Part shown: piece by piece, positions 4,748-62,394 of the stretch
Position numbering within the stretch: position 1 is the first letter of the stretch
Layout of the letters: each line of letters starts with the position of its first letter
Assembly (NCBI RefSeq): GCF_050971785.1
Contig: NZ_JBPCCU010000012.1
Location: 58,049-122,048, forward strand
Direction of reading: 5' to 3'
DNA from: Actinomadura scrupuli
GTDB taxonomy: Bacteria > Actinomycetota > Actinomycetes > Streptosporangiales > Streptosporangiaceae
DNA length: 64,000 nt
Translations under genes and position numbers: made by a program
The notes under the pieces: model-generated
What the model was told of the DNA's origin: nothing
Seen by the model: only the letters and a program-made list of their open reading frames with translations
The model's database searches: none

Positions 4748-4769
4748 GCCGGGTCCGTACGCGGGCTCC

Positions 4770-11933: not shown

Positions 11934-12214
11934 CCAGCAGACCCGGAGACCCAGAGACCCGAGCTACGGTCGCCGGAAAATGCGTCGACGTCTGCGCGCC
12001 CGATCCGTACCATCTGAGCCATGTTCACCGCGGCCGGCATCCTCTCGCTCGCAGAGCTCGCAGCTCTGCCGGGCGCGGTGCCGGCTGCCGTCTCGGCAGC
12101 AGCACCCGCCGGCGGCCTGCGACTCTGACCCTCCTCCGTCCCGCCTTCGAGAACCCACGGAGGAGGGTGGTCGGCATTTCGGTTCTCCCGCAGGAAACGT
12201 AGCGAGGAGACATC

Positions 12215-13396
<1,182 letters not shown>

Positions 13397-30930: not shown

Positions 30931-30962
30931 TCAATGTTTGCCCACAGACAGAGAGACCTTTG

Positions 30963-33038
30963 ATGGATGCCATCACCACCGGGATCGGTGTACTCCTCGC
31001 CGTCGTGCTGCTCATCGTTCTGGGCACGTTCTTCACCCTCACCCGGCTCTTCCGCAAGGTCGAGCAGGGCAAGGTCCTGATCGTCTCCAAGATCAAGAAG
31101 GTGGACGTCACCTTCACCGGGGCGATCGTGCTGCCGGTGCTGCACAAGGCCGAGGTGATGGACATCTCGGTGAAGACCATCGAGATCCACCGGACCGGCA
31201 AAGAGGGTCTGATCTGCCAGGACAACATTCGCGCCGACATCCGCATCACGTTCTTCGTCCGGGTCAACAAGACCGTCGAGGACGTGATCCAGGTGGCGCA
31301 GGCCATCGGCACCGACCGGGCCAGCCACGAGGACACGCTGCAGGTGCTGTTCGCCGCCAAGTTCGCCGAGGCCCTCAAGACCGTGGGCAAGCAGCTCGAC
31401 TTCGTCGACCTCTACACCCACCGGCACGAGTTCCGTGACCGGATCATCCAGATCATCGGCACCGACCTCAACGGTTACCACCTCGAGGACGCCGCCATCG
31501 ACTTCCTCGAGCAGACCCCGCTGTCGAGCCTGGACCCGTCCAACATCCTCGACGCGCAGGGCATCCGCAAGATCACTGAGCTGACGGCGATCGAGCACGT
31601 CCGCACCAACGAGTTCCAGCGGACCGAGGAGAAGGAGATCACCCGCCAGAACGTCGACGCGCGGGAGGCCATCCTCGAACTGGAACGCCGGCAGGCCGAC
31701 GCCGAGAACAAGAAGAAGCGCGAGATCGAGACCGTACGGGCCCGCGAGGAGGCGGAGATCGCCCGGGTCCAGGCGGAGGAGCGGCTCAAGTCGCAGACCG
31801 CGCACATCAAGACCGATGAGCAGCTCGGCATCCAGACCGAGAACCGCAACCGTGAGATCGCCGTCGCGGAGAAGAACAAGGAACGCGTCATCGCCGTCGA
31901 GACCGAGCGGATCGAGAAGGACCGCATGCTCGAGGTGATCGCCCGCGAGCGGGAGACCCAGCTGGCGAGCATCTCCAAGGACAAGGAGGTCGAGGGCGAG
32001 AAGCGGTCGATCGCCGAGGTGATCCGCGAGCGCATCGCGGTGGAGAAGACGGTCGCCGAGCAGGAGGAGAGCATCAAGCGCCTGCGGACGGTCGAAGAGG
32101 CCGAGCGGATGCGCCAGTCCATCGTGATCCAGGCCGAGGCCGAGGCACAGGAGCACCTGGTCAAGGACATCAAGGCAGCCGAGGCGGCCGAGGAGGCGGC
32201 CAAGTTCAAGGCCCGCGAGTCGCTGCTGCTGGCGGAGGCGCGTCAGCAGACCGCCGAGCTCGACACCCAGGCCAAGCTGCGGCTGGCCGAGGGCGTGCAG
32301 GCCGAGGCGGCCGCCGCCGGGCTGGCCGACGTGCAGGTACGCGAGCGCAACGCCGACGCCGTCGAGAAGCTCGGCCGGGCCGAGGCCGTCGTGAACCGGG
32401 AGAAGGGGCTGGCCTCCGCCGAGGCCACGGAGAAGGTCGGCCGCGCCGAGGCCATCGTCAGCCGGGAGATGGCGCTCGCGGGCGCCGACGCGCTGCGCGA
32501 GAAGCTGAAGGGCGAGGCCGAGGGCCTCACCGCGAAGGCCGAGGCCATGGCCGCGATGGGCGACGCGACCCGGCTGCACGAGGAGTACCGGCTGCGGCTG
32601 GAGGCCGAGAAGGACATCCGGATGGCCGGCCTCGACACGCAGCGCAAGGTCGCCGAGGCCCAGGCGAACGTGCTGGCCTCCGGACTGGAGAAGGCCGACA
32701 TCGACATCGTCGGCGGCGACACCATGTTCTTCGACCGCGTCGTCGGCGCCATCGGGATGGGCAAGAGCGTCGACGGGTTCATGGAGCACTCCGAGGTCGG
32801 GCAGACGCTGGCCGGGCCGTGGCTGAACGGGTCGCGGAGCTTCCCCGACGACCTGTCGCATCTGCTCGGCGCGGTGAACACCGACGACGTCAAGAACCTG
32901 ACCCTGTCCGCGCTGCTGCTGCAGCGGATCAAGGCGGGCGGCTCCGAGGCGGGCAAGATGCAGGAGCTGCTGGACACGGCCGAGCGCCTGGGCGTCGCCG
33001 ACTCGGCCGTCTCGTCCCTCGCCGTCATCGAGAAGTGA
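30963..33038 (+). CDS. flotillin family protein (SPFH/band-7, YqiK-like)
   Basis: About 691 aa. N-terminal TM, SPFH domain, and a long E/A/R-rich coiled coil (EAEIARVQAEERLK...). ATG at 30963; the lister used TTG at 30960. Confidence 0.85.
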   Translation: MDAITTGIGVLLAVVLLIVLGTFFTLTRLFRKVEQGKVLIVSKIKKVDVTFTGAIVLPVLHKAEVMDISVKTIEIHRTGKEGLICQDNIRADIRITFFVRVNKTVEDVIQVAQAIGTDRASHEDTLQVLFAAKFAEALKTVGKQLDFVDLYTHRHEFRDRIIQIIGTDLNGYHLEDAAIDFLEQTPLSSLDPSNILDAQGIRKITELTAIEHVRTNEFQRTEEKEITRQNVDAREAILELERRQADAENKKKREIETVRAREEAEIARVQAEERLKSQTAHIKTDEQLGIQTENRNREIAVAEKNKERVIAVETERIEKDRMLEVIARERETQLASISKDKEVEGEKRSIAEVIRERIAVEKTVAEQEESIKRLRTVEEAERMRQSIVIQAEAEAQEHLVKDIKAAEAAEEAAKFKARESLLLAEARQQTAELDTQAKLRLAEGVQAEAAAAGLADVQVRERNADAVEKLGRAEAVVNREKGLASAEATEKVGRAEAIVSREMALAGADALREKLKGEAEGLTAKAEAMAAMGDATRLHEEYRLRLEAEKDIRMAGLDTQRKVAEAQANVLASGLEKADIDIVGGDTMFFDRVVGAIGMGKSVDGFMEHSEVGQTLAGPWLNGSRSFPDDLSHLLGAVNTDDVKNLTLSALLLQRIKAGGSEAGKMQELLDTAERLGVADSAVSSLAVIEK

Positions 33039-33076
33039 CCGAGCATTGACCCCCCACCCCCACCACCCCCGTCCAC

Positions 33077-33125
33077 CCTCCGTGATCACGCAATCAATCG
33101 TCGAACGATTGCATGATCACGGAGG
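33077..33125. repeat. palindromic element copy B (18/19-bp stem, palindromic loop centred on TCGA)
   Basis: CCTCCGTGATCACGCAATC, loop AATCGTCGAAC, GATTGCATGATCACGGAGG. Flanked by CCACCCCC/GGGGTGGGG. Homolog of copy A at 13422-13470. Confidence 0.6.
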
Positions 33126-33149
33126 GGTGGGGCTGGACGAGGAGCGCAC

Positions 33150-36100
33150 GTGACGGACACCGCGAAGACCGGAGCCGGAGCCGGTACGGGGGACACCGCG
33201 GCACGCGATGGCGCGACCGGGAGCGGGGCGGGCGGCACCGCGGCACGCAAGGGCGAGACCGCGGCGGGCGGCACCGTGACCGGCGGGAACGGGGCGGCAG
33301 AGAGCCGGGCAGCAGGAAGCGAGACGGCAGGGAGCGGGGCGGCGGAGAGCGAGACGGGCGGGGTGGCCGGCGCCGGGCTGGACGCGGGCACCTACGAGGT
33401 GCTGCGGGCACGGCTGGCGGAGCAGGCCGCCGAGCTGGCCCGCCGGGCCGGGACGCTGAACGCCCGGCGCCTGGAGGTCTTCGGCAGCGCCGAGCTGCGC
33501 CTGATCGGCACCGAGCGGATCCGCACCGAGCACAACTGCGTCCCCCGCGACGTGGTGTCGGTCGGCGGGTTGATGCTGTTCGGCTACAACGTCTTCATCG
33601 GGCTCAAGCCCGAGACCACCGTGGACGACGTGTTCTCCCTGCACCGGTTCAGCAGGGAGGCGGACGCCTTCCGGTTCGAGGACGCCGTCGACGGGGAGCT
33701 GCCGGGGCTGCTGCGCGACGCCCAGTTCCAGCGGGACTTCGCCGAGCTCTACCGCTACTACCAGGACACCCGGCTCCTGCAGCTACGGCGGACCGACGGC
33801 AAGTTGCTGGCCGTCTTCCAGACCGGCCTGCTGGCCGAGGACGCCAAGGTGCTGCGCTGGGCCATCGCCACCGACGGTTCGGTGACGTACCAGGACGCGC
33901 GGGGTGAGGAGGACCATGTCTTCCCGCCGTCGCACGACTTCGTGTGGACCGAGACCACCCGGGACGACCACGTCCTGGGCCGGCACCCGCACATCTCGAT
34001 CGAGGACGAGCTGTTCGTCGAGACGATCGGCGGCGACCTCACCATCAAGGTGGAGAACAACACCGAGACCGGTGAGGGCATCTACGCCGAGCCCGTGGCC
34101 GAGCCGCTGCAGAGCCTCGCGGACGCCGAGGTGCAGTACGCCCGGGTCGGCTCGCTCATCCTGCTGCGGATCCTGCCGTACAAGGAGACCGAGCGCCGCC
34201 ACCTGGTGTTCAACACGCGGACCAAGAGCGTCGTCCGGCTGGACGGCATCGGGCAGGCCTGCCAGCGCCTGCCGGAGGACCACGGGATCATCTTCCCCGG
34301 CGGCTACTACCTGGCCACCGGCACGGTGAAGACCTTCGACGCCGACGTGGACAGGCTCGAGTACGAGCAGGTCATCCGTTCCGTCAACGGCGAGGACGTG
34401 CTCTACGTCTTCCATGCCCGGGAGGCCGGGCGGTACCTGCTGCTGCCCTACAACCTGATCCGCAAGGAGATCACCAACCCGATCACCTGCCACGGCTACT
34501 CGCTGTTCGACGACGGCACGATGGTGGCCTTCCGCGCCGACGCCGGGGAGCCCACCCGGGTGCACCCCATGCAGGTGTGGCAGACCCCGTACGTCTCCGG
34601 TGCCCACGCCGCCGCCCAGCCGACCGGCACCGGACCGCTGGAGCGGATCGGCAACGCCGACCTGGTGCGCGGCATCTCCGACGCCCTGTCGGTGACCCGG
34701 ATGGTCGACGAGATGGGCACCCTGAGCACCGCGCATCAGGGCAGGTACTGCGAGTCCCTCATCTCGAGCGCGTCGCGGGTGTTCGACCACTACCACTGGC
34801 TGGGCGAGCGAGACCTCGACGACCTCCGTACGCCGCTGTCGGCGGTGCGGTCCACCGCCGAGCAGATGCTGGACGAGTTCGAGAAGGTCCAGTCGCTCAC
34901 CGCCCAGGCGGCGGCCGCCGTGGACGAGGCCGACGCCCGGATCACCTCGATGATCCGGCTGGCCCGGGCCGAGGCTCCGGCGACCGCCGACGCGTGGGTG
35001 ACCCAGCTGGCCGAGCTGCGCCGCGCCCAGGGCCGCCTGGTGACGCTGCGGGAGCTGCGGTACGCCGACGAGGCCCGGATCGACGCGCTCGCCACCGAGC
35101 TGGGCACGGAGCTGGACGCCGCCGCCCAGCGCGCGATCGCCTTCCTGCGGGGCGAGGACGCCTTCGCCGGTTACCGTGCGGAGGTCGACCGGCTGGTCGC
35201 CGAGGCGGAGGCCATCGGCACCGTCGCCGACGCCACCCCGATCGTGACCAGGCTCACCGAGCAGGCGTCCGGGCTGGAGCTGGTCACCGAGATCGTCGGA
35301 TCGGTGGAGATCGCGGACGCCACCGTGCGCACCGGCATCCTGGAGCGGATCGGCGAGGTGCTCGGCGGCGTCAACCGGGCCCGCGCCATCCTGGACGTCA
35401 GGCGGCGCGAACTGCTCGCGCGGGAGGGCCAGGCCCAGTTCGCGGCCGAGTTCGCCCTGCTCGGGCAGTCCGTCACCGGCGCGCTGGCGCTGGCCGACAC
35501 CCCCGACCACTGCGACGAGCAGCTGGCCCGGCTCATGCTGCAACTGGAGAACCTCGAGACCCGCTTCTTCGACGCCGAGGACCCGCAGGCCGGGGCCGGC
35601 CCCGGCGGCGACCGGCTGGCCGAGCTCACGGCCAAGCGGGAGAGCATCTACGACGCGTTCTCGGCGCGCAAGCAGGCCCTGCTGGATGAGCGGGCGCGCA
35701 AGGCCGACCGGCTGGCCGCCTCCGCGACCCGGATCCTGGCGGGCCTGCAGCGCCGGGTCGCCGGCCTGCGCTCGCTCGACGAGGTCAACACCTACTTCGC
35801 CGCCGACCCGATGGTGGTCAAGCTGCGCGCCGTCGCCGACCAGCTGCGCTCGCTGGGCGACGTGGTCCGGGCCGAGGAGCTCGAAGGGAAGGTCAAGACC
35901 GCCCGCCAGGAGGCCGGCCGGACGCTGCGCGACCAGGTCGATCTCTACGACGACGGCGGCGGGACGATCCGGCTGGGCAGGCACCGTTTCGCGGTCAACA
36001 CCCAGCCCGTCGACCTCACGCTGGTCCCGCACGACGGCCGGATGGCCTTCGCGCTCACCGGCACCGACTACCGCGCGCCGGTCCTCGACGAGGCGTTCGA

Positions 36101-38453
36101 GGCCACCCGGCCGTACTGGGACCAGCTGCTCATCTCCGAGTCCGCCGAGGTCTACCGCGCCGAGCACCTCGCCGCCTCGATCCTCGCCGAAGCCGAGACA
36201 CAGGCCGAAACCCAAGCCGAGACGCAAGCAGACGCCCGCACCGGCACCGGTGAGGCCGCCCCCTCGCTGGACGCGCTGCGCGCGGCCGCGGCCGAGGACG
36301 GCGGCCTGCAGGGCATCGTCCGCCGCGCCGCCGAGGCCCGGTACGACGAGGGATACGAGCGCGGCGTACACGACCATGACGCGGCCGTGATCCTCGCCGT
36401 GCTGCTGCGCCTGCACACCGGCGCGGGGCTGCTGCGCTACCCCCCTGACGCGCGCGCCGCGGCTCAGCTGTTCTGGATGTACGGGACCGACGAGGCGGCC
36501 CGGGCCTCCTGGACCACGCGGGCCGGTTCGCTGGCCCGGGCCCGCTCCGCGTTCGGCCGTTCCAGCACGGTCGACGCCCTGTGCGCCGAGCTCGGCTCCG
36601 ACGTCACCGCCTTCCTCCGCGACTCCGGCCTGCGGCCCGGTGAGCTCGCGGGTCAGGCGGGGCTCGCGGGTCAGGCGGGGCTCGCCGGGGAGTACCTGTT
36701 CGAGGAGCTGGCCGGCGACCGGCCCGGGTTCGTGACCAGTGCCGGAGCCAGGGCCCTGCTCCAGGGGTTCGACCGCGCGCTGGGCGGCCCGCAGGCCGAG
36801 TCCCGCCGGCGGTTCGACGACGACCTGCGGGCGCTCGGCGACGATCTGGCCGCCCGGCACCAGCTGGTCGAGGCCTGGCTCGGCTCCTACCTCGGCTCCT
36901 ACCTCGCCGCGAGCGGCCCCGGGGACGGGAGCGTACGGCCGTCGTCCGCGGACCTGCCCGAGGCGGTGGCGATCGAGCTGTGCGGGGGCGGCCTGCCCCG
37001 GTACGAGTCGCCGGCCACCCTCACCGCCACCGCCGACGGGCTCCTCGGCGTCCATCCGCGTATCGTCCAGCGCCGCCTGGAGCTGCGGATCGACGAGTTG
37101 CTGGCCCGGACCCGGCGGTTCCGGACCGAGCGGGTGCCCGCCTTCCGGGCCTACCAGCGGCAGCGCACCGAGCTCGTCGACCGCGAGCGGCGGCGCCTCG
37201 GCCTCGAGGAGTTCCGGCCGAAGGTCATGAGCGCGTTCGTGCGGAACCGGCTCCTCGACGAGGTGTACCTGCCACTGATCGGCGACAACCTGGCCAAGCA
37301 GCTCGGTGCCGCCGGCACCGCCAAGCGCACCGACCAGATGGGCCTGCTGCTGCTCATCTCCCCGCCCGGCTACGGCAAGACCACTCTGATGGAGTACGTC
37401 GCCAGCCGCCTGGGCCTGGTGCTGGTGAAGGTCAACGGACCGGCGCTCGGCCACGGCGTCACCTCGCTGGACCCCGCGGAGGCACCGAACGCCACGGCCC
37501 GCCAGGAGATCGAGAAGATCTCGTTCGCGCTGGAGATGGGCAACAACGTCCTGCTCTACCTCGACGACATCCAGCACACCTCACCCGAGCTGCTGCAGAA
37601 GTTCATCTCGCTGTGCGACGCCCAGCGCCGGATGGAGGGCGTGTGGGAGGGCCGCACCCGGACCTACGACCTGCGCGGCAAGCGGTTCGCCGTCTGCATG
37701 GCAGGCAACCCCTACACCGAGTCGGGTCATCGCTTCCGCATCCCGGACATGCTCGCCAACCGCGCCGACGTGTGGAACCTCGGCGACGTGCTGTCCGGCA
37801 AGGAGGAGCTGTTCTCGCTGAGCTACGTCGAGAACGCGCTGACCTCCAATCCCGTCCTGGCCCCGCTGTCGACCCGGGAGCGCGGCGACATCGAGCTGCT
37901 GGTCCGGCTGGCCGGGGGCGACCAGACCGTGCGGCCCGACCAGCTCGCGCACCCCTACTCGGCCGTCGAGCTCGACCAGATCTTGGCCGTGCTGCGCAAG
38001 CTGCTGCGGGTCCAGCAGATCGTCCTCGCCACCAACCGCGCCTACATCGCCTCCGCGGCACAGGCGGAGGCGTCCCGGACCGAGCCGCCCTTCCAGCTGC
38101 AGGGCTCCTACCGCAACATGAACAAGCTGGCCGAACGGATCGTCCCGGTGATGAACGACGCCGAGCTCGAAGCCATGATCGACGATCACTATCTGGGCGA
38201 GGCGCAGACCCTCACCTCCGGCGCCGAGGCCAACCTGCTCAAGCTGGCCGAGCTGCGGGGCACGCTGACTCCCGGCCAGGCCGGGCGGTGGGCCGAGGTG
38301 AAGGCCGGTTTCGTCCGGGCGCAGGCCCTCGGCGGTGCGCAGGACGACCCGGTGAGCCGGGCGGTCGGTGCCGTCGGGCTGCTCGCCGACCGGGTCGGGT
38401 CGGTCGAGACCGCCATCACCCGTGCCGCCGGCCGGCTGGCGTCCGACAGATGA
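33150..38453 (+). CDS. very large (1767 aa) hypothetical protein with C-terminal AAA_5 (MoxR/dynein-class) ATPase domain
   Basis: GTG start with RBS GAGGAG. N-terminal G/A/T-rich low-complexity region, a central globular plus long helical region, and a C-terminal AAA+ module at nt 37330-37900 (Walker A ISPPGYGKTTL; Walker B LLYLDDIQH; FAVCMAGNPYTESGHRFRIPDMLANRADVW). Confidence 0.7.
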   Translation: MTDTAKTGAGAGTGDTAARDGATGSGAGGTAARKGETAAGGTVTGGNGAAESRAAGSETAGSGAAESETGGVAGAGLDAGTYEVLRARLAEQAAELARRAGTLNARRLEVFGSAELRLIGTERIRTEHNCVPRDVVSVGGLMLFGYNVFIGLKPETTVDDVFSLHRFSREADAFRFEDAVDGELPGLLRDAQFQRDFAELYRYYQDTRLLQLRRTDGKLLAVFQTGLLAEDAKVLRWAIATDGSVTYQDARGEEDHVFPPSHDFVWTETTRDDHVLGRHPHISIEDELFVETIGGDLTIKVENNTETGEGIYAEPVAEPLQSLADAEVQYARVGSLILLRILPYKETERRHLVFNTRTKSVVRLDGIGQACQRLPEDHGIIFPGGYYLATGTVKTFDADVDRLEYEQVIRSVNGEDVLYVFHAREAGRYLLLPYNLIRKEITNPITCHGYSLFDDGTMVAFRADAGEPTRVHPMQVWQTPYVSGAHAAAQPTGTGPLERIGNADLVRGISDALSVTRMVDEMGTLSTAHQGRYCESLISSASRVFDHYHWLGERDLDDLRTPLSAVRSTAEQMLDEFEKVQSLTAQAAAAVDEADARITSMIRLARAEAPATADAWVTQLAELRRAQGRLVTLRELRYADEARIDALATELGTELDAAAQRAIAFLRGEDAFAGYRAEVDRLVAEAEAIGTVADATPIVTRLTEQASGLELVTEIVGSVEIADATVRTGILERIGEVLGGVNRARAILDVRRRELLAREGQAQFAAEFALLGQSVTGALALADTPDHCDEQLARLMLQLENLETRFFDAEDPQAGAGPGGDRLAELTAKRESIYDAFSARKQALLDERARKADRLAASATRILAGLQRRVAGLRSLDEVNTYFAADPMVVKLRAVADQLRSLGDVVRAEELEGKVKTARQEAGRTLRDQVDLYDDGGGTIRLGRHRFAVNTQPVDLTLVPHDGRMAFALTGTDYRAPVLDEAFEATRPYWDQLLISESAEVYRAEHLAASILAEAETQAETQAETQADARTGTGEAAPSLDALRAAAAEDGGLQGIVRRAAEARYDEGYERGVHDHDAAVILAVLLRLHTGAGLLRYPPDARAAAQLFWMYGTDEAARASWTTRAGSLARARSAFGRSSTVDALCAELGSDVTAFLRDSGLRPGELAGQAGLAGQAGLAGEYLFEELAGDRPGFVTSAGARALLQGFDRALGGPQAESRRRFDDDLRALGDDLAARHQLVEAWLGSYLGSYLAASGPGDGSVRPSSADLPEAVAIELCGGGLPRYESPATLTATADGLLGVHPRIVQRRLELRIDELLARTRRFRTERVPAFRAYQRQRTELVDRERRRLGLEEFRPKVMSAFVRNRLLDEVYLPLIGDNLAKQLGAAGTAKRTDQMGLLLLISPPGYGKTTLMEYVASRLGLVLVKVNGPALGHGVTSLDPAEAPNATARQEIEKISFALEMGNNVLLYLDDIQHTSPELLQKFISLCDAQRRMEGVWEGRTRTYDLRGKRFAVCMAGNPYTESGHRFRIPDMLANRADVWNLGDVLSGKEELFSLSYVENALTSNPVLAPLSTRERGDIELLVRLAGGDQTVRPDQLAHPYSAVELDQILAVLRKLLRVQQIVLATNRAYIASAAQAEASRTEPPFQLQGSYRNMNKLAERIVPVMNDAELEAMIDDHYLGEAQTLTSGAEANLLKLAELRGTLTPGQAGRWAEVKAGFVRAQALGGAQDDPVSRAVGAVGLLADRVGSVETAITRAAGRLASDR

Positions 38454-38579
38454 CCGTCCTCCACCCCCGGAACAGCGGTCTTCCGTGCATGCGGCGCCGC
38501 CTCGGGCGATATAGCCGCTTTACGGAGCCGGTGCGGTGGCTTGGTCTTGCCCCGGGACGGATGGGGCAAGGACAGACAT

Positions 38580-39128
38580 ATGTTGGAACAGCTGAGCCGC
38601 CACTGGTGGATGCTCGCCGTACGCGGCGTGTGCGCGATCATCTTCGGTCTGCTGGCCTGGATCTGGCCCGGGATCACCCTGCTGGTGCTGGTGATCCTCT
38701 TCGGGGCGTACGCGTTCGTCGACGGCGTCCTGGCCCTCGGCGCGGCCTTCAAGAGCGAGGGCGGCCGGTCCCGCGTCTGGCTGGCGGTCGTGGGCGTGGC
38801 CGGTGTCCTGCTCGGTCTGGTGACCCTGTTCTGGCCGCACATCACCGGGCTGGTCCTGCTGTTGCTGATCGCCTGGTGGGCCATCGTGACCGGCGCGTTC
38901 GAGATCGTCGCGGCGATCCGGATGCGCAAGGAGATCGAGGGCGAGTGGCTCTACATCGTGAGCGGCGCCGTCTCGGTGATCTTCGGTGTGCTGGTCCTGG
39001 TCTGGCCCGCCACCGGGGCCCTCGCCATCGTCTGGCTGATCGGTCTGTTCTCCATCCTCTTCGGCGCGACGCTGATCGCCGCCGCGATCCGCCTCCGCAA
39101 GCTCGGCCAGGTCGCCCAGCCCGTCTAG
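38580..39128 (+). CDS. HdeD-family (DUF308) membrane protein
   Basis: Start ATG 38580. Six short TM segments with the repeating HdeD pattern (GICAIIFGLLAWIWPGITL...). Confidence 0.7.
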   Translation: MLEQLSRHWWMLAVRGVCAIIFGLLAWIWPGITLLVLVILFGAYAFVDGVLALGAAFKSEGGRSRVWLAVVGVAGVLLGLVTLFWPHITGLVLLLLIAWWAIVTGAFEIVAAIRMRKEIEGEWLYIVSGAVSVIFGVLVLVWPATGALAIVWLIGLFSILFGATLIAAAIRLRKLGQVAQPV

Positions 39129-54381: not shown

Positions 54382-54837
54382 TTAACCGCAGTGGACCTTC
54401 TTGCCGGTGACCTCACCCTTGTTCGCGCCGTCGGTGTTGATGAAGGCGCGCACGTAGAGGCATCGATGGCGGGCCCAGACGTAGAGCGGCCCGGCGTACC
54501 AGTGGTTCCTCTTGCTGTACCCGTCGTACTTGCAGTTGGCGTACTTGGTCCTGGCCGTGTTGTAGACGCAGAGCTTGAGCTGGATGTTGTAGAGCGGGGT
54601 CGAGCCCTTACGGATGGCCAGCGCGCAGTTATAGCCGTTGGAGGAGTTGTAGTAGACCTTGAGGTAGCCGCGGACCTTGGAGGCCACGTAGATCGAATGG
54701 GTGCTGCGCCAGGCGTAGCCACTCCCACATGACGGACCTGCGGCACTCGCCGGCGTGCTGGAGGCGAGCACGGTCGTCAGCGTCAAGGCGGGAAGCACGG
54801 CGGCCAACAGGGACAAGCGTTTACCAGTACGGATCAT
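54382..54837 (-). CDS. small secreted Cys-rich hypothetical protein
   Basis: Start MIRTGKRLSLLAAVLPALTLTTVLASSTPASA (signal peptide). Seven Cys in a mature domain of about 120 aa. Tyr/Asn/Lys-rich. Confidence 0.5.
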   Translation of the reverse strand: MIRTGKRLSLLAAVLPALTLTTVLASSTPASAAGPSCGSGYAWRSTHSIYVASKVRGYLKVYYNSSNGYNCALAIRKGSTPLYNIQLKLCVYNTARTKYANCKYDGYSKRNHWYAGPLYVWARHRCLYVRAFINTDGANKGEVTGKKVHCG

Positions 54838-55170
54838 GAGCCGTACCGTCCAACGACCGGTCGGATCCGCCACGTTGTCCGCATGGGCCGGTTTGGACGG
54901 AAGGGCTCAAGGCGATCAGGCGCCGCACGGCGCTGCCGGCCGCCCGGTGAGGTCGACGCACTGCGCTGGTACGGCCTCGGCGGCGCCCGGGAAATGTCAC
55001 CGGCGTCCGCGATGCTGTCTCCCGGACCCGCCGAGAAGAGAGGCTTCCATGTCGATGCATGGCGTGCGCGCAGATCAGGTGGTGAATCGGTTCGGGCACT
55101 CACCGCGTCCCCTGGGAGGTGGGTTGCCGGCCCCCGGCCGGCCGCACCGGTGCCCGGCCGGGGGTCAGGA

Positions 55171-55665
55171 GTGACGGACGCGGACACCGCAGTGGGCGAC
55201 CAGAGCAGCGTGGTCCGGGTGGTTCCTCCCATCCGGCCCCGCAAGCTGGCGAAGGTTCCATTCGTCGAGCTGGCGGACGGGAGGCTGCAGGGGGTCGTGT
55301 CCAGTGGTTCGGACATCGCCCGGGTGTACGTCTCATCGATCGCCGCGCGGACCCACGGCTACAACTGCAGCACCAACAACAACCGGCCGTGCGGCGGGCT
55401 GCGCGGCGCACCGTGCAAGCACCTGCGGGCGCTCGTCGATGAAGCGGTGCTGCAGTACGGCCTGGGCCGCGTCGCCCGATATCTGCATGTCGAGGTCGGC
55501 GACGGCGAGGATCTGATGGGCTGCCTGCGCGGTGCTCCGGAGTCCGCGCCGGCGGCGGTCGTGTTCAGCCGCTTCCTGCGCCACCTCGCCTATCTGGAAC
55601 TGCCGAACACCACGGAGCCCATCGCCGAGTTGCACTGGTTCCCCGCGATGGGGGTGGTTCGCTGA
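55171..55665 (+). CDS. SWIM-like zinc-finger protein (first gene of MoxR/VWA operon; start uncertain; ORF open from 54883)
   Basis: C-x7-C-x7-C-x-H (NCSTNNNRPCGGLRGAPCKHLRAL), SWIM-like. Stop TGA overlaps the next ATG (TGATG at 55663-55667). Confidence 0.45.
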   Translation: MTDADTAVGDQSSVVRVVPPIRPRKLAKVPFVELADGRLQGVVSSGSDIARVYVSSIAARTHGYNCSTNNNRPCGGLRGAPCKHLRALVDEAVLQYGLGRVARYLHVEVGDGEDLMGCLRGAPESAPAAVVFSRFLRHLAYLELPNTTEPIAELHWFPAMGVVR

Positions 55666-57059
55666 TGCTCGGTGTGCAGCTCGCGGAACTGCTCGACGGG
55701 TCCGAGCCGGGTATCGAGGAGACACTCGATCTGGTGGCCGGGTTCGACGATGCCCTGGTGCACGGGCTCGCGCGGCTCGACGAACGGCGTGCCGGGTCGC
55801 TCGCCGCGCTGGCCGGCGCGCTGCGGGCCACACCGCTGGGCCCGGCGGTGGACGAGGCGGCCGAGAAGATCACTGCGGGCTCGATCGCGGAGGAGCAGCT
55901 GGCGGTGCTGGCCGGTGGCCGTACCGCGTTGTTGGGTGCGGTGCACGACGCACAGCTCGCCCGGCTCGACGCGGCGCTCGGCCGGACCCGGGCACCGTGG
56001 GAGGGGCCCCCTTCCGCGGCGGCACCGGCGGCGGAGAACCTGCTCGCCGGGTGCCGGTCCTGGCTCCAGGAGCTCGCCATCACCGGCTGGCGGGGAGTCG
56101 ACCACGACCTCGTCTCCGCCTCCGACCAGGTGATCGCCGCACTGCTGGCCGAACCCGCTCTGCGGCGGCCGGCGGTGCTCCTCGACGGCCTGGCCGCGGA
56201 GCTACGGGCGTCGTGCCCGGTGGCGACGATGGAGCGGCTGCCCGCCCGGCGCTGGGCCGACCTGTGGGCCCGTGGCCTGCTGTCGTCACAGCCGGGCGGC
56301 CTGGCCGGCTCCGCGCCCGCCGGCCCGGTGTCGGGGCGGCTGCTGCCGCTCGGCGTGGACGTGCACGAACACGGCACCGCGGTGCAGATACAGGTGCACG
56401 GGGTGCTCGAGCCCACCGGTGGCGCAGCACCCCGCCTGGTACGGACGAGTGTGGGCGCCGCGAAGGTCGACACGATCGTGGGCCCGGCGCTGTGGCGGCT
56501 GCTGCAGGGACATCCGGTGCTCCTGACGGCGCTGGCCGAGCACCGGAGCGTCAACCTCACCGACCTGCCCGTCCTGGCGAGCGGCGACCTGCTGTGGCGA
56601 GACGGCCAAGCCACCATGGGCGAGCCGGCCTCCCCCTTCGAGACGGCCCGGATCCAGCTCGCCGGGGCGCTGGCCCCGGCGGTGCCTCCCCTGGACCGCC
56701 ATCCGGTGCGCATCGCCGAGCCGGTGCTGCTGGAGGGTTATACGACCGATGGCGGCGTGCTCGATCTGGACGGCAACACCCTCGCCCTCGACCTGGACCG
56801 GCTCCCGGCCTGCGGGCCGCTCACGCCCGCGCTGGTGGCGGCCTCCTCGGCGTGCATCGGCCTGCTCCGCTGGGACGGCGGCCGGTGGCTGCTGCAGCCG
56901 CTCGCGGTCCAGGCGACGATCAAGCGCAAGCCCGTGTCGGCGCACAACGGCGACTGGGCGCTCGGTCCCACCGACCCGAAGGCGGTCAAGGCCGAGGCCG
57001 CGGCCGGTGACGCGGTGGCCGTGCTGCGGGAGCGCGCCGGGCGGCTGCTGCGGCGATGA
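55665..57059 (+). CDS. hypothetical Ala/Leu-rich protein (operon gene 2)
   Basis: 464 aa with no recognised motif. Start overlaps the upstream stop, and its stop overlaps the next start (ATGA at 57056). Confidence 0.55.
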   Translation: MLGVQLAELLDGSEPGIEETLDLVAGFDDALVHGLARLDERRAGSLAALAGALRATPLGPAVDEAAEKITAGSIAEEQLAVLAGGRTALLGAVHDAQLARLDAALGRTRAPWEGPPSAAAPAAENLLAGCRSWLQELAITGWRGVDHDLVSASDQVIAALLAEPALRRPAVLLDGLAAELRASCPVATMERLPARRWADLWARGLLSSQPGGLAGSAPAGPVSGRLLPLGVDVHEHGTAVQIQVHGVLEPTGGAAPRLVRTSVGAAKVDTIVGPALWRLLQGHPVLLTALAEHRSVNLTDLPVLASGDLLWRDGQATMGEPASPFETARIQLAGALAPAVPPLDRHPVRIAEPVLLEGYTTDGGVLDLDGNTLALDLDRLPACGPLTPALVAASSACIGLLRWDGGRWLLQPLAVQATIKRKPVSAHNGDWALGPTDPKAVKAEAAAGDAVAVLRERAGRLLRR

Positions 57060-58417
57060 GCGACACCGGCCCGAGCGACAAGAACAACGACAACGACGAG
57101 AACAACGGCGACACGCACGGAAGCGAGACGGCCTTGAGCGAGGCGGATGAGAACCGGCGGCAGGTTCTCTACTGGCGGCTCCTGGCGCGGATGTTCGACC
57201 ACGAGGAGCAGCCCGCGCTGGAGGCCGCCAGCGTGGCCATCGTCGATGACCTCGGGCTGCCGCCCGCGCTGCTCGATCCGGCCGTGTCGGTGGACAACCT
57301 CGTACAGCGCTTTCCCGGCCTGGCAGCCGAGCTCCAGGGCCTGATGGCCCCTGAAGACGGCACCGACGACGATCCACGGCGGCGGGTGCGCCGGGCGGCC
57401 CTGGTCTCCAAGCTCCTGCTCAACGTGTTCTCCACCGGCACCGGCAGCGTGACCGCCACCCAGCTGGCCGGTTGGCAGCAGGACTCGGGCTGGTTGAAGC
57501 AGGCGCTCGGCACCGACGGCGCGGCCGAGCTGACCGGTGTGCTGTCCACCATGGAGAGCGACCTGGTCAGCCGGATGCGGCTGCGCGAAGTGCTGGCCGA
57601 TCCGATGCTGGCCCGCAGGTTGACGCCGAGCATGTCGCTCATCGAGCAGTTGCTACGGGACAAGGCCAACCTGTCGGGGGTCGCCCTCGCCAACGCCAAG
57701 GCGCTCATCCGCAGGTACGTCGACGAGGTCGCCGAGGTCCTGCGCACCCAGGTCGAGCAGACCAGCGTCGGCACGATCGACAGGTCGGTGCCGCCGAAAC
57801 GGGTGTTCCGCAACCTCGACCTCAAGCGGACCATCTGGAAGAACCTCCCCAACTGGAGCGCTGAGGACGAGCGGCTGTACGTCGACCGGCTGTTCTACCG
57901 GCAGACCGCCAAGCGCACCACGCCCGCGCGCCTGATCGTGGTGGTCGACCAGTCGGGGTCGATGGTCGACTCGATGGTGAACTGCACCATCCTGGCGTCG
58001 ATCTTCGCGGGCCTGCCCAAGGTGGACGTCCACCTGATCGCGTACGACACCCGGGCGCTCGATCTGACCCCCTGGGTGCACGATCCGTTCGAGGTGCTGC
58101 TGCGCACGAAGCTCGGCGGCGGCAACGACGGCCCCGTCGCGATGGCCATGGCGACGCCGAAGATCTCCGACCCGCGGAACACCGTGATGGTCTGGATCTC
58201 CGATTTCTACGAGTTCGACCGGTCGCAGCCGCTGTTCGACGGCATCGAGGCGGTGCACCGCTCAGGGGTGAAGTTCATCCCGGTCGGCTCGGTGAACAGC
58301 TCAGGGCACCAGAGCGTGAACCCCTGGTTCCGCCAGCGCCTCAAGGATCTGGGCACCCCCGTGATCTCAGGTCACATCCGCAAGCTCGTGTTCGAGCTGA
58401 AGAACTTCCTCGCTTAG
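57056..58417 (+). CDS. von Willebrand factor A (VWA) domain protein (operon gene 3)
   Basis: 453 aa with an acidic N-terminus and a C-terminal VWA domain with MIDAS DxSxS (LIVVVDQSGSMVDS) ... WISDFYEF. Confidence 0.75.
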   Translation: MSDTGPSDKNNDNDENNGDTHGSETALSEADENRRQVLYWRLLARMFDHEEQPALEAASVAIVDDLGLPPALLDPAVSVDNLVQRFPGLAAELQGLMAPEDGTDDDPRRRVRRAALVSKLLLNVFSTGTGSVTATQLAGWQQDSGWLKQALGTDGAAELTGVLSTMESDLVSRMRLREVLADPMLARRLTPSMSLIEQLLRDKANLSGVALANAKALIRRYVDEVAEVLRTQVEQTSVGTIDRSVPPKRVFRNLDLKRTIWKNLPNWSAEDERLYVDRLFYRQTAKRTTPARLIVVVDQSGSMVDSMVNCTILASIFAGLPKVDVHLIAYDTRALDLTPWVHDPFEVLLRTKLGGGNDGPVAMAMATPKISDPRNTVMVWISDFYEFDRSQPLFDGIEAVHRSGVKFIPVGSVNSSGHQSVNPWFRQRLKDLGTPVISGHIRKLVFELKNFLA

Positions 58418-58429
58418 GAGATCGAAGCA

Positions 58430-59548
58430 ATGACCGATGAGATGCTGCGCGCCCCTGCCGAGGTGAAGTACGCCGAGGAGCTCGACTGGCTGGAGTCCCT
58501 CGATGACGGGCCCAAGCCGTTCTCCTGGCGTCTCAGCCCCCGGATGACCCGGCTGTTCATCCTCGGTTCCGAGCGCTCCGACGGGCTCGACCGAGAGATC
58601 CCGCAGAAGTGGTTCGGCGACCGCAGCCTCGTCGAACGCGCCATCGTCACGCTCGCCTCGGACCGCGGGCTGCTGCTCATCGGCGACCCGGGCACCGGCA
58701 AGAGCTGGCTCGCCGAGCTGCTCTCGGCCGCCATCTCCCGTAACTCGACCCTGGTCGTCCAAGGCACGGCCGGCACCACCGAGGACCACATCAAGTACTC
58801 GTGGAACGTCTCGATGGTGATCGCCAAGGGCCAGTCACGCGAGTCGATGATCCCTTCGCCGATCATGACGGCGATGGAACAGGGCGTGATCGGCCGCTTC
58901 GAGGAGCTGACCCGCTCGACCAGCGACGTGCAGGACGCGCTGATCTCCATCCTGTCCGAGAAGTACGTGTCCGTCCCGGAACTCGACGATGACAACATCG
59001 TCTTCGCCCAGCCAGGCTTCTCGATCATCGCTACGGCCAACAGCCGGGACCGCGGCGTGAACGACCTTTCTTCCGCGCTGAAGCGGCGGTTCAACTTCGT
59101 CCGCATTCCGATGGTGACGAGCAAACGCAGCGAGGCGGAGATCGTGCGGTTCCGCACCACGGAACTGCTGCGCCGGCACCAGATCGACCTGGACGTGCCG
59201 CCCACCCTGCTGGACATCCTGCTGCAGAGCTTCGCCGACCTGCGGGCCGCGGCGGCGTCGGCCACCAGCGACGACGAGAAGCTCGAGTCGGCGCTCTCCA
59301 CCGCCGAGCAGATCGGGGTACTCGAGGACGCCATCCTGCACAGCCAGTTCTTCGGCGACCGTACGCTGCGCGCGGGGACGCTCGCCGGCTCGCTGGTGGG
59401 CTCGCTCGCCCGCCGCAGCCCCGAGGACCTGGCCATCCTGAACAAGTTCTGGCACGGCGTCGTCGAGCCGCGCAGCAAGCAGGACGACGGCGGACCCTGG
59501 CAGGAGTTCCTCGAAGGCGGGCGCCAGGCCATCGCGACGCTGTCATGA
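58430..59548 (+). CDS. MoxR-class AAA_5 ATPase (CbbQ/NirQ/NorQ/GvpN-like) (operon gene 4)
   Basis: RBS TAGGAG, ATG 58430. Walker A LLIGDPGTGKSWLA. Walker B-like FEELTRSTSDVQDALISIL. Sensor region FSIIATANSRDRGVNDLSSALKRRF. Confidence 0.85.
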   Translation: MTDEMLRAPAEVKYAEELDWLESLDDGPKPFSWRLSPRMTRLFILGSERSDGLDREIPQKWFGDRSLVERAIVTLASDRGLLLIGDPGTGKSWLAELLSAAISRNSTLVVQGTAGTTEDHIKYSWNVSMVIAKGQSRESMIPSPIMTAMEQGVIGRFEELTRSTSDVQDALISILSEKYVSVPELDDDNIVFAQPGFSIIATANSRDRGVNDLSSALKRRFNFVRIPMVTSKRSEAEIVRFRTTELLRRHQIDLDVPPTLLDILLQSFADLRAAAASATSDDEKLESALSTAEQIGVLEDAILHSQFFGDRTLRAGTLAGSLVGSLARRSPEDLAILNKFWHGVVEPRSKQDDGGPWQEFLEGGRQAIATLS

Positions 59549-62394
59549 GCGACCCGGTTCCGGCGAGCACATCGAGTCCATTCGGCGCGCTCCGCGAGCG
59601 GCTGCTCGATGCCGCCGCCGCCTTCGCCACGACGTCCGCGACATCCCCTGGCGGCGCGGGCACGGTGCCCGGCATCCTGGCGGGCATGGTCGACGACGTC
59701 GACCGGGCGTTGCGGGAGGAGCTCGAGATCTTCCCGGTGTGCCACCACTCTCCGGCCTCGGCGCTGGCGATGGTAGGGCGGCTGCGCGAGAAGCAGCCCA
59801 AGGTCATCTATCTGGAGCTGTGCGAGGACCTGCGGCCGTTGCTCGGCGAGCTGCGCAACTGCCGGTTGCCCATCGCGCTGCAGGCGTTCGCGACCGAACT
59901 CGACGACTTTCCCTCGGCCTGGGCGCCGCTCAGCGTCATCGCGCCCATCACCGAGGCGTCCGCCGAGTACCAGGCCATCTCCTACGCCCTGGACACACCC
60001 GGCGTCGAGCTGGTGCTGGTCGACCGCTCCACCGATCACGTCTTCCAGTGGACGCCGCGCGAACCGCCCGAACCCACGCCCGCCGGCGGCGACGACGCGG
60101 CCCTGCACGGCGACGCGGTCGGCATCGAGATCGGTGACCTGCGGCCCCGCTTCGCCGAACTCGAGGAGCACCTGCTCCACCACGGCAAGGTCCGGCACTG
60201 GTCCGAGTGGTGGGACCAGTACGTGGAGCAGGCCCTGGTCGGCGCCGACTACAACACCTACCGGCAGGTCATGGTCATGATCGGCAGCCTGTTCCGGAGG
60301 CTGCGCCCGGACCGCGACGCGCGGGATGACCGGGACGAGGACCGCGAACGCTACATGTGGACCCGGATGCGCGAGCATCTCGCCACATCCGGGACCGACC
60401 CGGCGCAGTGCCTGTACGTCTGCGGCGCCTTCCACGCGGCCAGCCGGGTCGAACAGTTCGGGCTGACCGCCCAGCCGGCGGAGCCGTACGAGATCACGCC
60501 CCGCACGGCGACCCGCTGGCGGTACGGGCTGATCCCCTCCAGCCACTCCGCCATCGAGTCGCAGTTCGGGCTGGCCCCCGGCTCGGTGTCGATCGCCGCG
60601 GCGACCTGGTCCAAGGCGGTGAAGAGCAGCGGTGTCACGCCGTACCGGCTCGAAGGCCAGAAGGGGACGAAGCCCAGGAGGACCGCCCGTGCTCGCCCTG
60701 CGGCGCACGACCCACAGGCACCGGTCTCCGACCACCTGTCCGGCTTCCTCGCGCAGCCGTCCCGCCGGGGCGAGTTCGACGAGGCCGAACTGCTCGGCTG
60801 GTGCGTGGACATCGTCCGGCTGGCCCGCCGCAACGGCTATCTGGCGAGCACGGCCGACGCCATCGCCGTGTTCGAGACGTCGATCCTGCTGGCGGGCCTG
60901 CGCGGCCGGAGCCGCCCCACTCCGTACGACTTCGAGGACGCCGCGGTCACGTGCATCGAGAAGGACGCCGTGCCGGGCCGCCGCGACGTACGCCGCCTCT
61001 GCGAGATCCTGCTGGGCGGCGACCGGGTCGGGCAGGTCGGCTACGAGTCGCTCCCGCCGCTGGCCCGCGATGTGCTGGACCGGCTGGAGCCGTTGGGGCT
61101 CGACCTGGGGAAACGCACGATCCAGCGGGCGCTCCTCGACCTCGGCGCCGACCCGGAACTGGTGCCGTGCTCCGACCTGCTGTGGGTGCTGCGCCGCCTG
61201 CTGCCGGACGACGCCGTCCGCCCCATCATGGGGGCCCGGCGGCTGAACGAACGGCCGATCCAGGAGAGCTGGGACCTCGCGATCGGTCGTCACCAGCGAT
61301 CCATCGTCGAGCTCGGCTACGAGGGCGTCACCATCGAGCAGGTGCTGGAGCAGCGACTGCGCCGGACCGTGGGGGATCCCAAGGCGACCGCCGCCATCGC
61401 GCTGGAGGCCGTGGAGGAGGCCATCCTCTACCTCGGCAGCCGGCGGATCAGCGATGACCTCGGCACCCGGGCCGTGGAGCTGCTGGCCGCGGAGCGCACC
61501 GTGGACGACGCCCCCGAGGTGTTGCGGCGGATCCGCAGGCTGCTCACCCACTACCGCGCCACGGAGCCGACGCTGCCGGAGTGGTGCGAAAGGTTCGTGG
61601 CCGCGGGCTACGCGCATTACTGCACGTTGCTGCCGACCGCCTTCGTGGACGAGGACACCGGGGTGCGCCAGGTGGCCGCCATGCTCGGCTTCCTGTTCAG
61701 CATGGAGAGCCTCGCGCTGTCGCTCGGATGTGATCACACCCAGCTCGAGCTCGCCGTCCAGCAGTCGCATCCGGAGGCACCGGCCAAGGTGGCGCTGCTG
61801 TGGGCGGCAAGGTCCCAGGTCGGCCTGCTGCCACTGGCCGAGCTGCGGTCGCGGTGCGACGAGTTGCTGGCCAACCCGCTCGTCGTCCCGGCCATCCCCC
61901 TGTATCTGAGCGGATTCGTCCAGGCGCTGGAACCTGCGCCGGCTCTGGCACCTTTCGTGGTCGAGGCGATGTCCAAGGCATTCGCCCGGTTGCCCGATAC
62001 GGTGCTGCTCCCGTGGCTGCCCAAACTGATCACGACGCTGCGCGATCAAGCGCACGAGCTGGTGCCGGTGCTCGTACGCGAGGCGGGCCGTACGTTCCCC
62101 GCCGCTCTGCCCGCCATCGACGCCTGGTCGCCGCCGTGGGCCGCGCGGTCGGCGCCGCCGGTGCCGGACGCGGCGGGCGATCCGGTCTTCTCGTCGTCCC
62201 AGGCGGTGGCGGAGCTCGTGGCCGCCCAGCCGGCGGCGTGCGACGCCGTTGCCGGGCTGTTCGGCTACGACACCGGATGGCGGCCGACCATGGACCCCGC
62301 CGGCGGATCTCCTCGAGACCGCCACCAGGTGGGCGCGCTACCGGCCCGGTACACCGAGACCGCAGCCGCCGTCGCGGAACTGCTCCGGCGGTGA
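59545..62394 (+). CDS. large (949 aa) hypothetical protein, translationally coupled to the AAA_5 ATPase (possible DUF5682/YehM-like partner)
   Basis: ATGA overlap at 59545-59548. No known catalytic motif seen. Predicted largely alpha-helical. Confidence 0.65.
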   Translation: MSDPVPASTSSPFGALRERLLDAAAAFATTSATSPGGAGTVPGILAGMVDDVDRALREELEIFPVCHHSPASALAMVGRLREKQPKVIYLELCEDLRPLLGELRNCRLPIALQAFATELDDFPSAWAPLSVIAPITEASAEYQAISYALDTPGVELVLVDRSTDHVFQWTPREPPEPTPAGGDDAALHGDAVGIEIGDLRPRFAELEEHLLHHGKVRHWSEWWDQYVEQALVGADYNTYRQVMVMIGSLFRRLRPDRDARDDRDEDRERYMWTRMREHLATSGTDPAQCLYVCGAFHAASRVEQFGLTAQPAEPYEITPRTATRWRYGLIPSSHSAIESQFGLAPGSVSIAAATWSKAVKSSGVTPYRLEGQKGTKPRRTARARPAAHDPQAPVSDHLSGFLAQPSRRGEFDEAELLGWCVDIVRLARRNGYLASTADAIAVFETSILLAGLRGRSRPTPYDFEDAAVTCIEKDAVPGRRDVRRLCEILLGGDRVGQVGYESLPPLARDVLDRLEPLGLDLGKRTIQRALLDLGADPELVPCSDLLWVLRRLLPDDAVRPIMGARRLNERPIQESWDLAIGRHQRSIVELGYEGVTIEQVLEQRLRRTVGDPKATAAIALEAVEEAILYLGSRRISDDLGTRAVELLAAERTVDDAPEVLRRIRRLLTHYRATEPTLPEWCERFVAAGYAHYCTLLPTAFVDEDTGVRQVAAMLGFLFSMESLALSLGCDHTQLELAVQQSHPEAPAKVALLWAARSQVGLLPLAELRSRCDELLANPLVVPAIPLYLSGFVQALEPAPALAPFVVEAMSKAFARLPDTVLLPWLPKLITTLRDQAHELVPVLVREAGRTFPAALPAIDAWSPPWAARSAPPVPDAAGDPVFSSSQAVAELVAAQPAACDAVAGLFGYDTGWRPTMDPAGGSPRDRHQVGALPARYTETAAAVAELLRR

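Follow-up and report, generated by a model that had tools for sequence, protein, structure and literature searches.

The window analysed here, a 64,000-nucleotide (nt) stretch of Actinomadura scrupuli DNA with 65-74% G+C, contains a real and tightly coupled five-gene operon, and the cassette it encodes is very probably the actinomycete version of the YehL-type MoxR system, of which yehLMPQ is the Escherichia coli representative. Its products, which we call O1 to O5, are a finger protein, a protein of an unnamed family, a CoxE-type VWA protein, a MoxR-family AAA+ ATPase and a DUF5682 protein; O2 and O5 are 100% identical to annotated proteins of A. scrupuli. The reading that we prefer, with a probability of roughly 0.45, is that these proteins form a self-contained machine in which the MoxR/VWA pair acts on its own DUF5682 hydrolase or scaffold. 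The features of the cassette, with junction geometries as counted in 79 related loci, are as follows.

54874-55170, plus strand: non-coding leader/promoter region, without a codon-position GC signature; ORF1 homologues do not align here
55171-55665, plus strand: O1, 164 amino acids (aa), read as a derived SWIM-like zinc finger protein; start set by alignment to 79 orthologues
55665-57059, plus strand: O2, 464-aa protein of an unnamed family
57056-58417, plus strand: O3, 453-aa CoxE-type VWA protein, YehP homologue (Pfam VWA_CoxE, BLASTP)
58430-59548, plus strand: O4, 372-aa MoxR-family AAA+ ATPase of the YehL subfamily (Pfam AAA_5, BLASTP)
59545-62394, plus strand: O5, 949-aa DUF5682 protein, YehM homologue (Pfam PF18934)
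55663-55667, plus strand: O1/O2 junction, TGATG, 1-nt overlap (-1 nt geometry in 66/79 loci)
57056-57059, plus strand: O2/O3 junction, ATGA, 4-nt overlap (-4 nt in 61/79 loci)
58415-58432, plus strand: O3/O4 junction, TAG stop within an AGGAG Shine-Dalgarno-like sequence, 12-nt gap, ATG at 58430
59545-59548, plus strand: O4/O5 junction, ATGA, 4-nt overlap (-4 nt in 45/79 loci)

A preliminary description of this DNA, made from its letters, had placed five co-directional genes here, and open reading frames (ORFs) were found on the plus strand exactly where it put them (54883-55665, 55665-57059, 57056-58417, 58430-59548 and 59545-62394). Codon-position GC marks all five as coding, and a G+C content at third codon positions (GC3) of 0.90-0.94 identifies ORFs 2-5 as genuine genes. 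The start given for the first ORF, 54883, proved to be over-extended by 288 nt, as this initial part (54883-55170) has no codon-position bias and the orthologues align only from GTG 55171; the product is therefore 164 rather than 260 aa long. The leader lies between a divergent 163-aa ORF on the minus strand (54382-54873) and this GTG. All four junctions described earlier (TGATG, the two ATGA overlaps, and TAGGAG followed by a 12-nt gap) could be read directly in the sequence. The O3/O4 gap measures 9-15 nt in most of the 79 related loci, and at the O4/O5 junction 21 further loci gave -52, which we provisionally read as an artefact of start-codon picking. That this geometry is kept from locus to locus argues against chance. 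A search for sigma-70-like or consensus promoters, intrinsic terminators and Rfam families found none inside or around the cassette, which fits a single transcription unit, although in DNA of 70% GC such a negative is weak evidence. Translation of the five genes is coupled, and they are inherited together as one block.

The ATPase-VWA pair and its subtypes

As judged from its sequence, O4 belongs to the MoxR class of AAA+ ATPases and has the full set of catalytic motifs. Its match to Pfam AAA_5 (6.3e-36) agrees with the preliminary description, which had further assigned it to the CbbQ/NorQ class. The class did not hold: BLASTP aligned O4 over its full length with YehL of E. coli K-12 (40% identity, 363 aligned residues, E 9e-86) and O3 with YehP of the same strain (31% identity, E 2e-44), which places the ATPase in the YehL subfamily, one of seven MoxR subfamilies and separate from the CbbQ/GvpN/NorQ group (PMC3893208), and the GvpN model TIGR02640 reached 41.4 bits on O4 against a cut-off of 266.8. 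The bpMoxR model likewise stayed below its threshold (14.2 bits, cut-off 27). Searches with NCBIfam and PADLOC gave only sub-threshold generic ATPase/VWA matches for the cassette proteins, and no solved structure was detectable by sequence for O2, O3, O4 or O5, even for the ATPase. Walker A (GDPGTGKS, 58682-58705) is canonical, and the Walker and sensor motifs, which had been called intact, are conserved; Walker B (RFEELTR, 58895-58915) departs from that claim in carrying EE rather than DE, which it does in every subtype of the system.

O3 is classified as a CoxE-type VWA protein with a metal-ion-dependent adhesion site (MIDAS), based on its match to Pfam VWA_CoxE (6.6e-29). The MIDAS had been described as intact, which is true of the DQSGS motif (D298-Q-S-G-S302, 57947-57961) and of SDFYE but not of the MIDAS Thr position, where O3 has Asn instead (GGGN, residue ~356). 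This position is polymorphic within the actinomycete clade (41 Thr versus 38 Asn) and is Thr in Fulvitalea, E. coli, Rhizobium and Bacillus.

The resemblance of the cluster to E. coli yehL, yehM, yehP and yehQ, noted in the preliminary description, was borne out by YehL, by YehP and, more weakly, by YehM, which has DUF5682 in common with O5. The system is modular, with an invariant AAA-DUF5682 pair, a VWA protein and a finger protein, and its genes are arranged in at least three ways. Type A (E. coli, Bacillus and some Streptomyces) has the order DUF4132 - AAA - DUF5682 - VWA - SWIM or large protein, type B (Rhizobium) SWIM - DUF5691 - AAA - DUF5682 - VWA, and type C (the A. scrupuli window, Fulvitalea and a metagenome) O1 - O2 - VWA - AAA - DUF5682. 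The ATPase gene is directly followed by that for DUF5682 in E. coli, Bacillus, Rhizobium, Streptomyces, Fulvitalea and the actinomycete subtypes, and it is the VWA gene that moves. Conserved between subtypes are the ATPase motifs GxPGTxK[ST], R[FL]EE[LI]TR, ATAN, RD[RK]GVN and ALKRRF, together with the MIDAS motifs DxSGS and [ST]D[FL].

Two observations on the other subtypes touch on their composition and kinship. In E. coli (YehI, 2280-5912 of the locus), Bacillus mycoides (5518-8952) and Streptomyces (5312-8899), the gene directly before that of the ATPase encodes a DUF4132 protein of ~1150-1210 aa, which is therefore probably a fifth component of type A; the type C cassette lacks it. Furthermore, the P-loop of type A and B YehL proteins reads GxPGTAKS, as opposed to the canonical GDPGTGKS of type C. 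The same variant has been noted for FtsH- and beta-propeller-type MoxRs (Kaur et al., PMC7159879), and E. coli YehL matches bpMoxR with an E value of 0.0012, which together hint that the YehL and bpMoxR lineages are closer kin.

The DUF5682 protein and the accessory subunits

The 949-aa protein had been expected to carry a domain of unknown function such as DUF5682, and O5 does match this family (PF18934, 4e-28; NCBI name 'DUF5682 family protein'); its BLASTP match to YehM is weak. The AlphaFold2 model of O5 is confident only at residues ~600-850 (61342-62094), where it predicts a C-terminal alpha-solenoid matching HEAT/ARM-like repeat proteins. Within the N-terminal ~300 residues, H67, H68, P70, E91, S139, E141, D160, R267, M271, G294 and H297 are invariant in all three subtypes, and H67/H68, E91, E141, R267 and H297 are so across the three operon subtypes and 32 orthologues. 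A 2His/2Glu motif and a conserved basic residue, set in an alpha/beta core, define the enzymes of the TIKI superfamily (PMC6254334), and the invariant residues of O5 fit such a 2His/2Glu-plus-Arg pattern, with a residue equivalence that comes from a low-confidence alignment. The putative TIKI/TraB-like domain would span residues ~60-300 (59722-60444).

We compared this region by hhalign with a TraB/GumN template, an alignment of seven members. The N-terminal domain of all DUF5682 members scored 33.8 (E 6e-4, probability 29%) and that of type A and B members alone 36.8 (E 1.7e-4, probability 49%). Every control scored lower, at 13.0 +/- 2.0 (maximum 20.5) for 200 column-shuffled templates, 12.6-21.6 for six unrelated profiles and 14.4 for the reversed template. 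In a relaxed alignment the motifs run colinear, with HH opposite G-S-I-H, I-E opposite V-E, S-P-E opposite G-I-D, I-D opposite L-E, R-E-x-x-M opposite R-N-x-x-W and G-A-x-H opposite G-A-x-H. Against E. coli YbaP alone, only the GxxH motif was aligned (E 0.033). On balance we lean slightly towards a TIKI/TraB-like nature of the DUF5682 N-terminal domain.

The finger of O1, C66-x7-C74-x7-C82-x-H84 (55366-55422), lies within a near-invariant core (PRKLAKVPFVELADGRLQGVVSSGSD...RVYVSS...CSTNNNRPCGG...CKH), and its four Cys/His positions are kept in 79/79 orthologues (C-x7-C-x(6-9)-C-x-H) as well as in the Fulvitalea and metagenome members. The pattern reported in the preliminary description is thus real, while the zf-SWIM match that it expected from profile searches did not appear: Pfam SWIM (PF04434) did not match O1 at E <= 1, only 1/23 orthologues matched (E 0.15), and no Pfam family was matched by O1 at all. 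With hhalign, the O1 finger aligned with the Rhizobium SWIM finger at E 0.0023 and with the YehQ-type finger at E 0.014; in this test, two accepted SWIM proteins aligned with one another at E 0.0055. In the profile alignment O1 reads C-S-[TNNNRP]-C, a six-residue insertion in the C-x-C knuckle of SWIM. O1 therefore reads as a derived SWIM-like finger outside strict Pfam SWIM membership, with a probable zinc site. BLASTP of O1 against YehQ was not significant, and the rest of YehQ has no counterpart in O1.

Residues 1-207 of O2 are predicted to form a helical N-terminal domain and residues 218-427 a beta-rich half, followed by a flexible, basic tail at the C-terminus. Searches of Pfam, the PDB and fold libraries gave no match, or in the case of folds no significant one; the best Foldseek matches of the beta-rich half, all non-significant, include the tandem OB-fold single-stranded-DNA-binding proteins RPA70 and SSB (E 0.65-1.4, probability <= 0.28). 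The hallmark of the family is its C-terminus, ...ER[AS]G[RK]LLR[KR] in 96/111 family representatives and predicted to be disordered, which appears in the window as the invariant LRERAGRLLR[KR] (57024-57056). The family comprises more than 2100 proteins named 'hypothetical', in 323 clusters at 50% identity, nearly all of them stand-alone. Together, O1 and O2 are clade-specific accessory subunits.

Several other identities for these two proteins were considered and rejected. DUF5691 (PF18944), the positional analogue of O2 in Rhizobium, was discarded with both single-sequence and deep profiles: there was no Pfam hit, and the O2-family profile (up to 71 of 107 sequences) matched that of DUF5691 (up to 71 of 114) with a probability of 0.4% and E 0.14 in hhalign. 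A split YehQ was suggested by BLASTP patches that looked colinear, but profile tests recovered only the finger, in O1, and nothing for O2, for which the idea was dropped; no counterpart of O2 was detectable in E. coli. Natural O1-O2 fusions, which would have served as Rosetta-stone evidence, proved to be either insertions of low complexity or gene calls garbled by frameshifts. Some public gene calls of the cassette are indeed chimeras of this garbled kind, in which O1 or O3 sequence is fused to an Arg-rich out-of-frame translation, and this may be why a few clusters of O2 homologues in UniRef bear the name 'SWIM zinc finger family protein'.

Distribution and proposed mechanism

A scan of a genome collection with the ATPase returned 80 loci, all actinomycete, spanning Streptosporangiales, Micromonosporales, Streptomyces, Nocardia and Kineosporiaceae. 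The gene-neighbourhood analysis that had been proposed as a check came out clearly, with all five genes co-conserved in the same order in 79/80 loci (the exception is a 3.9-kb contig). Across orders, the five proteins are 58-94% identical and the ATPase itself 88-94%. In E. coli, yehLMPQ is core, being present as a single chromosomal copy in 5353/5426 complete genomes.

In the window, the cassette is flanked by genes for a Ser/Thr kinase, a nitronate monooxygenase, a 163-aa unknown protein and an acyl-CoA dehydrogenase, none of which travels with it. When the flanking ORFs were clustered, no additional family recurred in more than 13/80 loci, and no Pfam family occurred more than four times among 112 immediate neighbours, so that a conserved client or sixth gene was rejected for the 80 actinomycete loci; the absence of an adjacent client enzyme, noted earlier for this DNA, thus extends from the window flanks to the related loci. 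A defence-island context or known defence system was rejected as well. Only 3/112 neighbours (from ~30 loci) matched PADLOC models, all of them Ser/Thr kinases, the other neighbours being ordinary, and within the cassette PADLOC found none beyond weak generic ATPase/VWA matches. Almost nothing was found in phages: the sole match in a phage collection is a YehL-type ATPase (41% identity, MT835988.1, 12861-13934) on an unannotated, putatively viral 14-kb contig ('Bacteriophage sp.') from human faeces. Taken together, the neighbour surveys give neither a linked client nor a defence-island signature.

The block appears to be transferred occasionally. O2 of the window is 76% identical to that of two Streptomyces loci, as compared with 65-75% for most other Actinomadura loci, so that the phylogeny of the cassette is probably not congruent with taxonomy. 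In addition, the 62-kb plasmid pFA9 of Fulvitalea axinellae (Bacteroidota) carries a full actinomycete-type five-gene cassette (5492-13014; ATPase 70% identical), with a type I restriction-modification system and a further AAA ATPase as its neighbours, which looks like a cross-phylum transfer. A distant relative of O2 on a metagenome contig is accompanied by the same five genes in the same arrangement.

Elsewhere in the window, an unrelated large ATPase cluster occupies 30858-39128 on the plus strand. It consists of a 726-aa ORF without Pfam match (30858-33038), a 1778-aa protein (33117-38453) with DUF3686 ('ATPase involved in DNA repair', 7e-216), DUF7902 and a weak AAA_5 match, and a 225-aa ORF (38454-39128) that abuts the DUF3686 gene. 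At 13664-17176 (plus strand) lies a gene for a 1171-aa protein with a subtilase S8 domain and FG-GAP repeats.

In the self-contained machine that we propose, the O4 ATPase ring would supply ATP-driven remodelling, as in CbbQ/CbbO, NorQ/NorD, CoxD/CoxE, and CobS/CobT with CobN. As in those pairs, the VWA protein O3 would use the metal of its MIDAS to tether the ATPase to a partner by an acidic residue of the latter; this partner would be the co-encoded O5 and not an unlinked client. The pair may then assemble, gate or load the putative 2His/2Glu hydrolase domain at the N-terminus of O5, the C-terminal half of which would serve as an alpha-solenoid scaffold, while SWIM-like O1 together with O2 might select the substrate or regulate access to it. 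The MIDAS site or the pore of the ATPase might take hold of O2 by its flexible tail, in which Glu456 is conserved. We offer this gating mechanism tentatively, as a possible form of the machine. A generalisation to all YehL-type cassettes, as an unrecognised class of AAA+-coupled hydrolases in which MoxR and a MIDAS adaptor gate a TIKI/TraB-type peptidase on an alpha-solenoid and finger or O2-type subunits choose the substrate, is more speculative still and, as matters stand, unlikely.

A number of points weigh against the machine and its hydrolase. Gene adjacency is what designates DUF5682 as the target of the ATPase-VWA pair. Activity at the ATPase site of O4, with its EE Walker B, is putative, as is that of the O3 MIDAS with Asn at the Thr position; zinc binding by O1 and a function for the O2 tail are both argued from conservation. 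The N-terminal half of O5 is modelled at low confidence, so that its alpha/beta fold stays putative, and the hhalign probabilities of 29-49% lie below the usual confidence level. Moreover, type C members alone, the cassette's own subtype, gave no TraB/GumN signal (score 15.3), which makes the TIKI/TraB link transitive for the A. scrupuli locus. Pfam scans of DUF5682 N-terminal domains at E <= 10 returned no TraB, ChaN or Ere, and the corresponding profile found no ChaN or Ere chain in the PDB. Literature searches on DUF5682, yehLMPQ and MoxR with SWIM gave nothing on function and no experiment on any member, and none of the papers searched names DUF5682.

One alternative, which we regard as improbable, is a conflict or anti-phage system, with the MoxR-VWA pair as a threshold switch and the DUF5682 hydrolase as an effector released when an invader is sensed through O1/O2. 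Such pairs are switches in predicted conflict systems (PMC7159879), and a beta-propeller-type MoxR-vWA pathway has been found experimentally to sense epibionts in Actinomycetota (Esr pathway; bioRxiv 10.64898/2026.09.08.750141), a precedent for the switch role from a different family. The varied genomic contexts, the occurrence on large plasmids including that of the Bacteroidota next to restriction-modification genes, and the incongruent O2 identities would suit such a system, and so would the silencing of E. coli yehLM by H-NS/StpA (PMC3686432) and the P-loop that type A and B members have in common with FtsH- and beta-propeller-type MoxRs. However, the PADLOC results, the core status in E. 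coli and the near absence from phage genomes speak otherwise, as do an ATPase so uniform across orders and the lack of any hypervariable component, the opposite of the diversifying effectors of ternary systems, and the lack of VMAP, iSTAND, FtsH and beta-propeller domains.

Equally to be weighed is a maturation chaperone for an unlinked client, which would insert a metal or cofactor into that client or remodel it, with DUF5682, O1 and O2 as adaptors or carriers. ChaN binds haem, and O1 has its probable zinc site. ChaN is also a non-proteolytic member of the TIKI superfamily (PMC6254334), and every characterised MoxR-VWA pair works as a chaperone (PMC3893208; PMC7159879), O3 itself being of the CoxE type; high conservation and core status in E. 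coli would fit such a housekeeping role. Nevertheless, we consider this explanation doubtful as well. The clients of known pairs are usually encoded next to them, yet none is linked in the 80 actinomycete, E. coli, Rhizobium, Bacillus and Fulvitalea loci; an autonomous block that moves between contexts and phyla is hard to square with dependence on a specific host enzyme, and five tightly coupled subunits exceed the needs of the known chaperone pairs.

Finally, a nucleic-acid-directed remodeller, in which the SWIM-type finger (with DUF4132 in type A) would target the ATPase complex to DNA or the nucleoid, is highly improbable: SWIM domains occur in DNA-associated proteins, every subtype has a SWIM or SWIM-like finger, DUF4132 directly precedes the ATPase in three phyla and the beta-rich half of O2 has its faint OB-like matches, but these matches are not significant, SWIM fingers make contacts between proteins as well, DUF4132 is missing from the actinomycete subtype, and searches of the five proteins turned up no DNA-binding domain, whether nuclease, helicase, HTH or other.

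The YehL subfamily, the yehLMPQ neighbourhood and the names DUF5682 and VWA_CoxE were already known. What this analysis adds is the actinomycete architecture with its strict five-gene conservation, the O2 family, the derived finger of O1, the invariant pairing of AAA and DUF5682 and the TIKI/TraB-like signature in the latter. The literature searched assigns the subfamily no function, structure or phenotype, although it belongs to the core genome of E. coli and its ATPase is ~90% identical across actinomycete orders. If the signature is genuine, it would point to a hydrolase gated by a MoxR-VWA pair, testable by mutagenesis of specific yehM residues. Under the broader reading of all YehL-type cassettes, called unlikely above, they would encode an ATP-dependent machine of a new kind, for proteolysis or processing, that is part of the core of E. 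coli and of most filamentous actinomycetes.

Comparison with known systems

The preliminary description had also seen a resemblance to the MoxR-vWA ternary conflict systems, which holds for the architecture and fails for the defining parts. Both have a MoxR and vWA core with further conserved operon components, occur in multicellular actinomycetes and probably share CoxD/CoxE ancestry. The core third components of the ternary systems are VMAP, iSTAND, an FtsH-type ATPase or a beta-propeller, and the survey that defined them does not mention YehL, DUF5682 or SWIM (Kaur, Burroughs, Iyer and Aravind 2020, PMC7159879). None of these components is present in O1, O2 or O5, and there is no variable effector; the cassette proteins are highly conserved rather than diversifying, and the bpMoxR match is below threshold.

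In pairing a MoxR-type AAA+ ATPase with a MIDAS VWA protein, here of the CoxE Pfam type, the cassette resembles CoxD/CoxE, NorQ/NorD, CbbQ/CbbO and RavA/ViaA. It differs from these characterised pairs in its MoxR subfamily, in having two extra dedicated subunits and in its surroundings, where no Rubisco, NOR, CODH, gas vesicle or other client is adjacent. A further parallel is offered by the CobS/CobT/CobN and ChlI/ChlD/ChlH chelatases, where the target of the AAA and VWA subunits is a large third protein encoded with them, as proposed here for O5; no similarity of DUF5682 to CobN or ChlH was detected.

With the TIKI, TraB, PrgY, GumN, Ere and ChaN proteins, the DUF5682 domain would share invariant His, Glu, Glu, Arg and Gly-x-x-His residues in the order and with similar spacing of the TraB/GumN motifs. 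Its first motif reads HH[SG]P, as opposed to G[ST]xH in the superfamily, and searches of profiles against sequences miss it; its fold is putative, and it is fused to a ~600-aa helical region and sits in an ATPase operon.

The Rhizobium cluster likewise has five genes with overlapping junctions, an AAA-DUF5682 pair, and a finger protein first, followed by a protein of ~470 aa. There, however, the second protein is a DUF5691 member, which O2 is not, the SWIM protein has 460 aa and a canonical C-x-C, the VWA gene comes last instead of third and the ATPase is ~41% identical.

In E. coli yehLMPQ the gene order is AAA-DUF5682-VWA-SWIM, as compared with O1-O2-VWA-AAA-DUF5682 here, the latter fixed in 79/80 loci, Fulvitalea and the metagenome. 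The 614-aa YehQ contrasts with a 164-aa O1 in which a C-x7-C knuckle goes undetected by Pfam SWIM, and O2 (464 aa) has no detectable E. coli counterpart, while the DUF4132 neighbour (YehI) is missing here. The P-loop is GEPGTAKS in E. coli and GDPGTGKS in A. scrupuli, and the DUF5682 proteins, 759 and 949 aa long, are weakly alignable. What the two have in common is an ATPase of orthologous grade, 40% identical over its full length and with the same motifs down to the EE of Walker B. Both also encode a VWA protein of the CoxE type whose MIDAS reads DQSGSM and a protein with a Cys3His finger, and in both the DUF5682 gene comes straight after that of the ATPase and gene junctions overlap.

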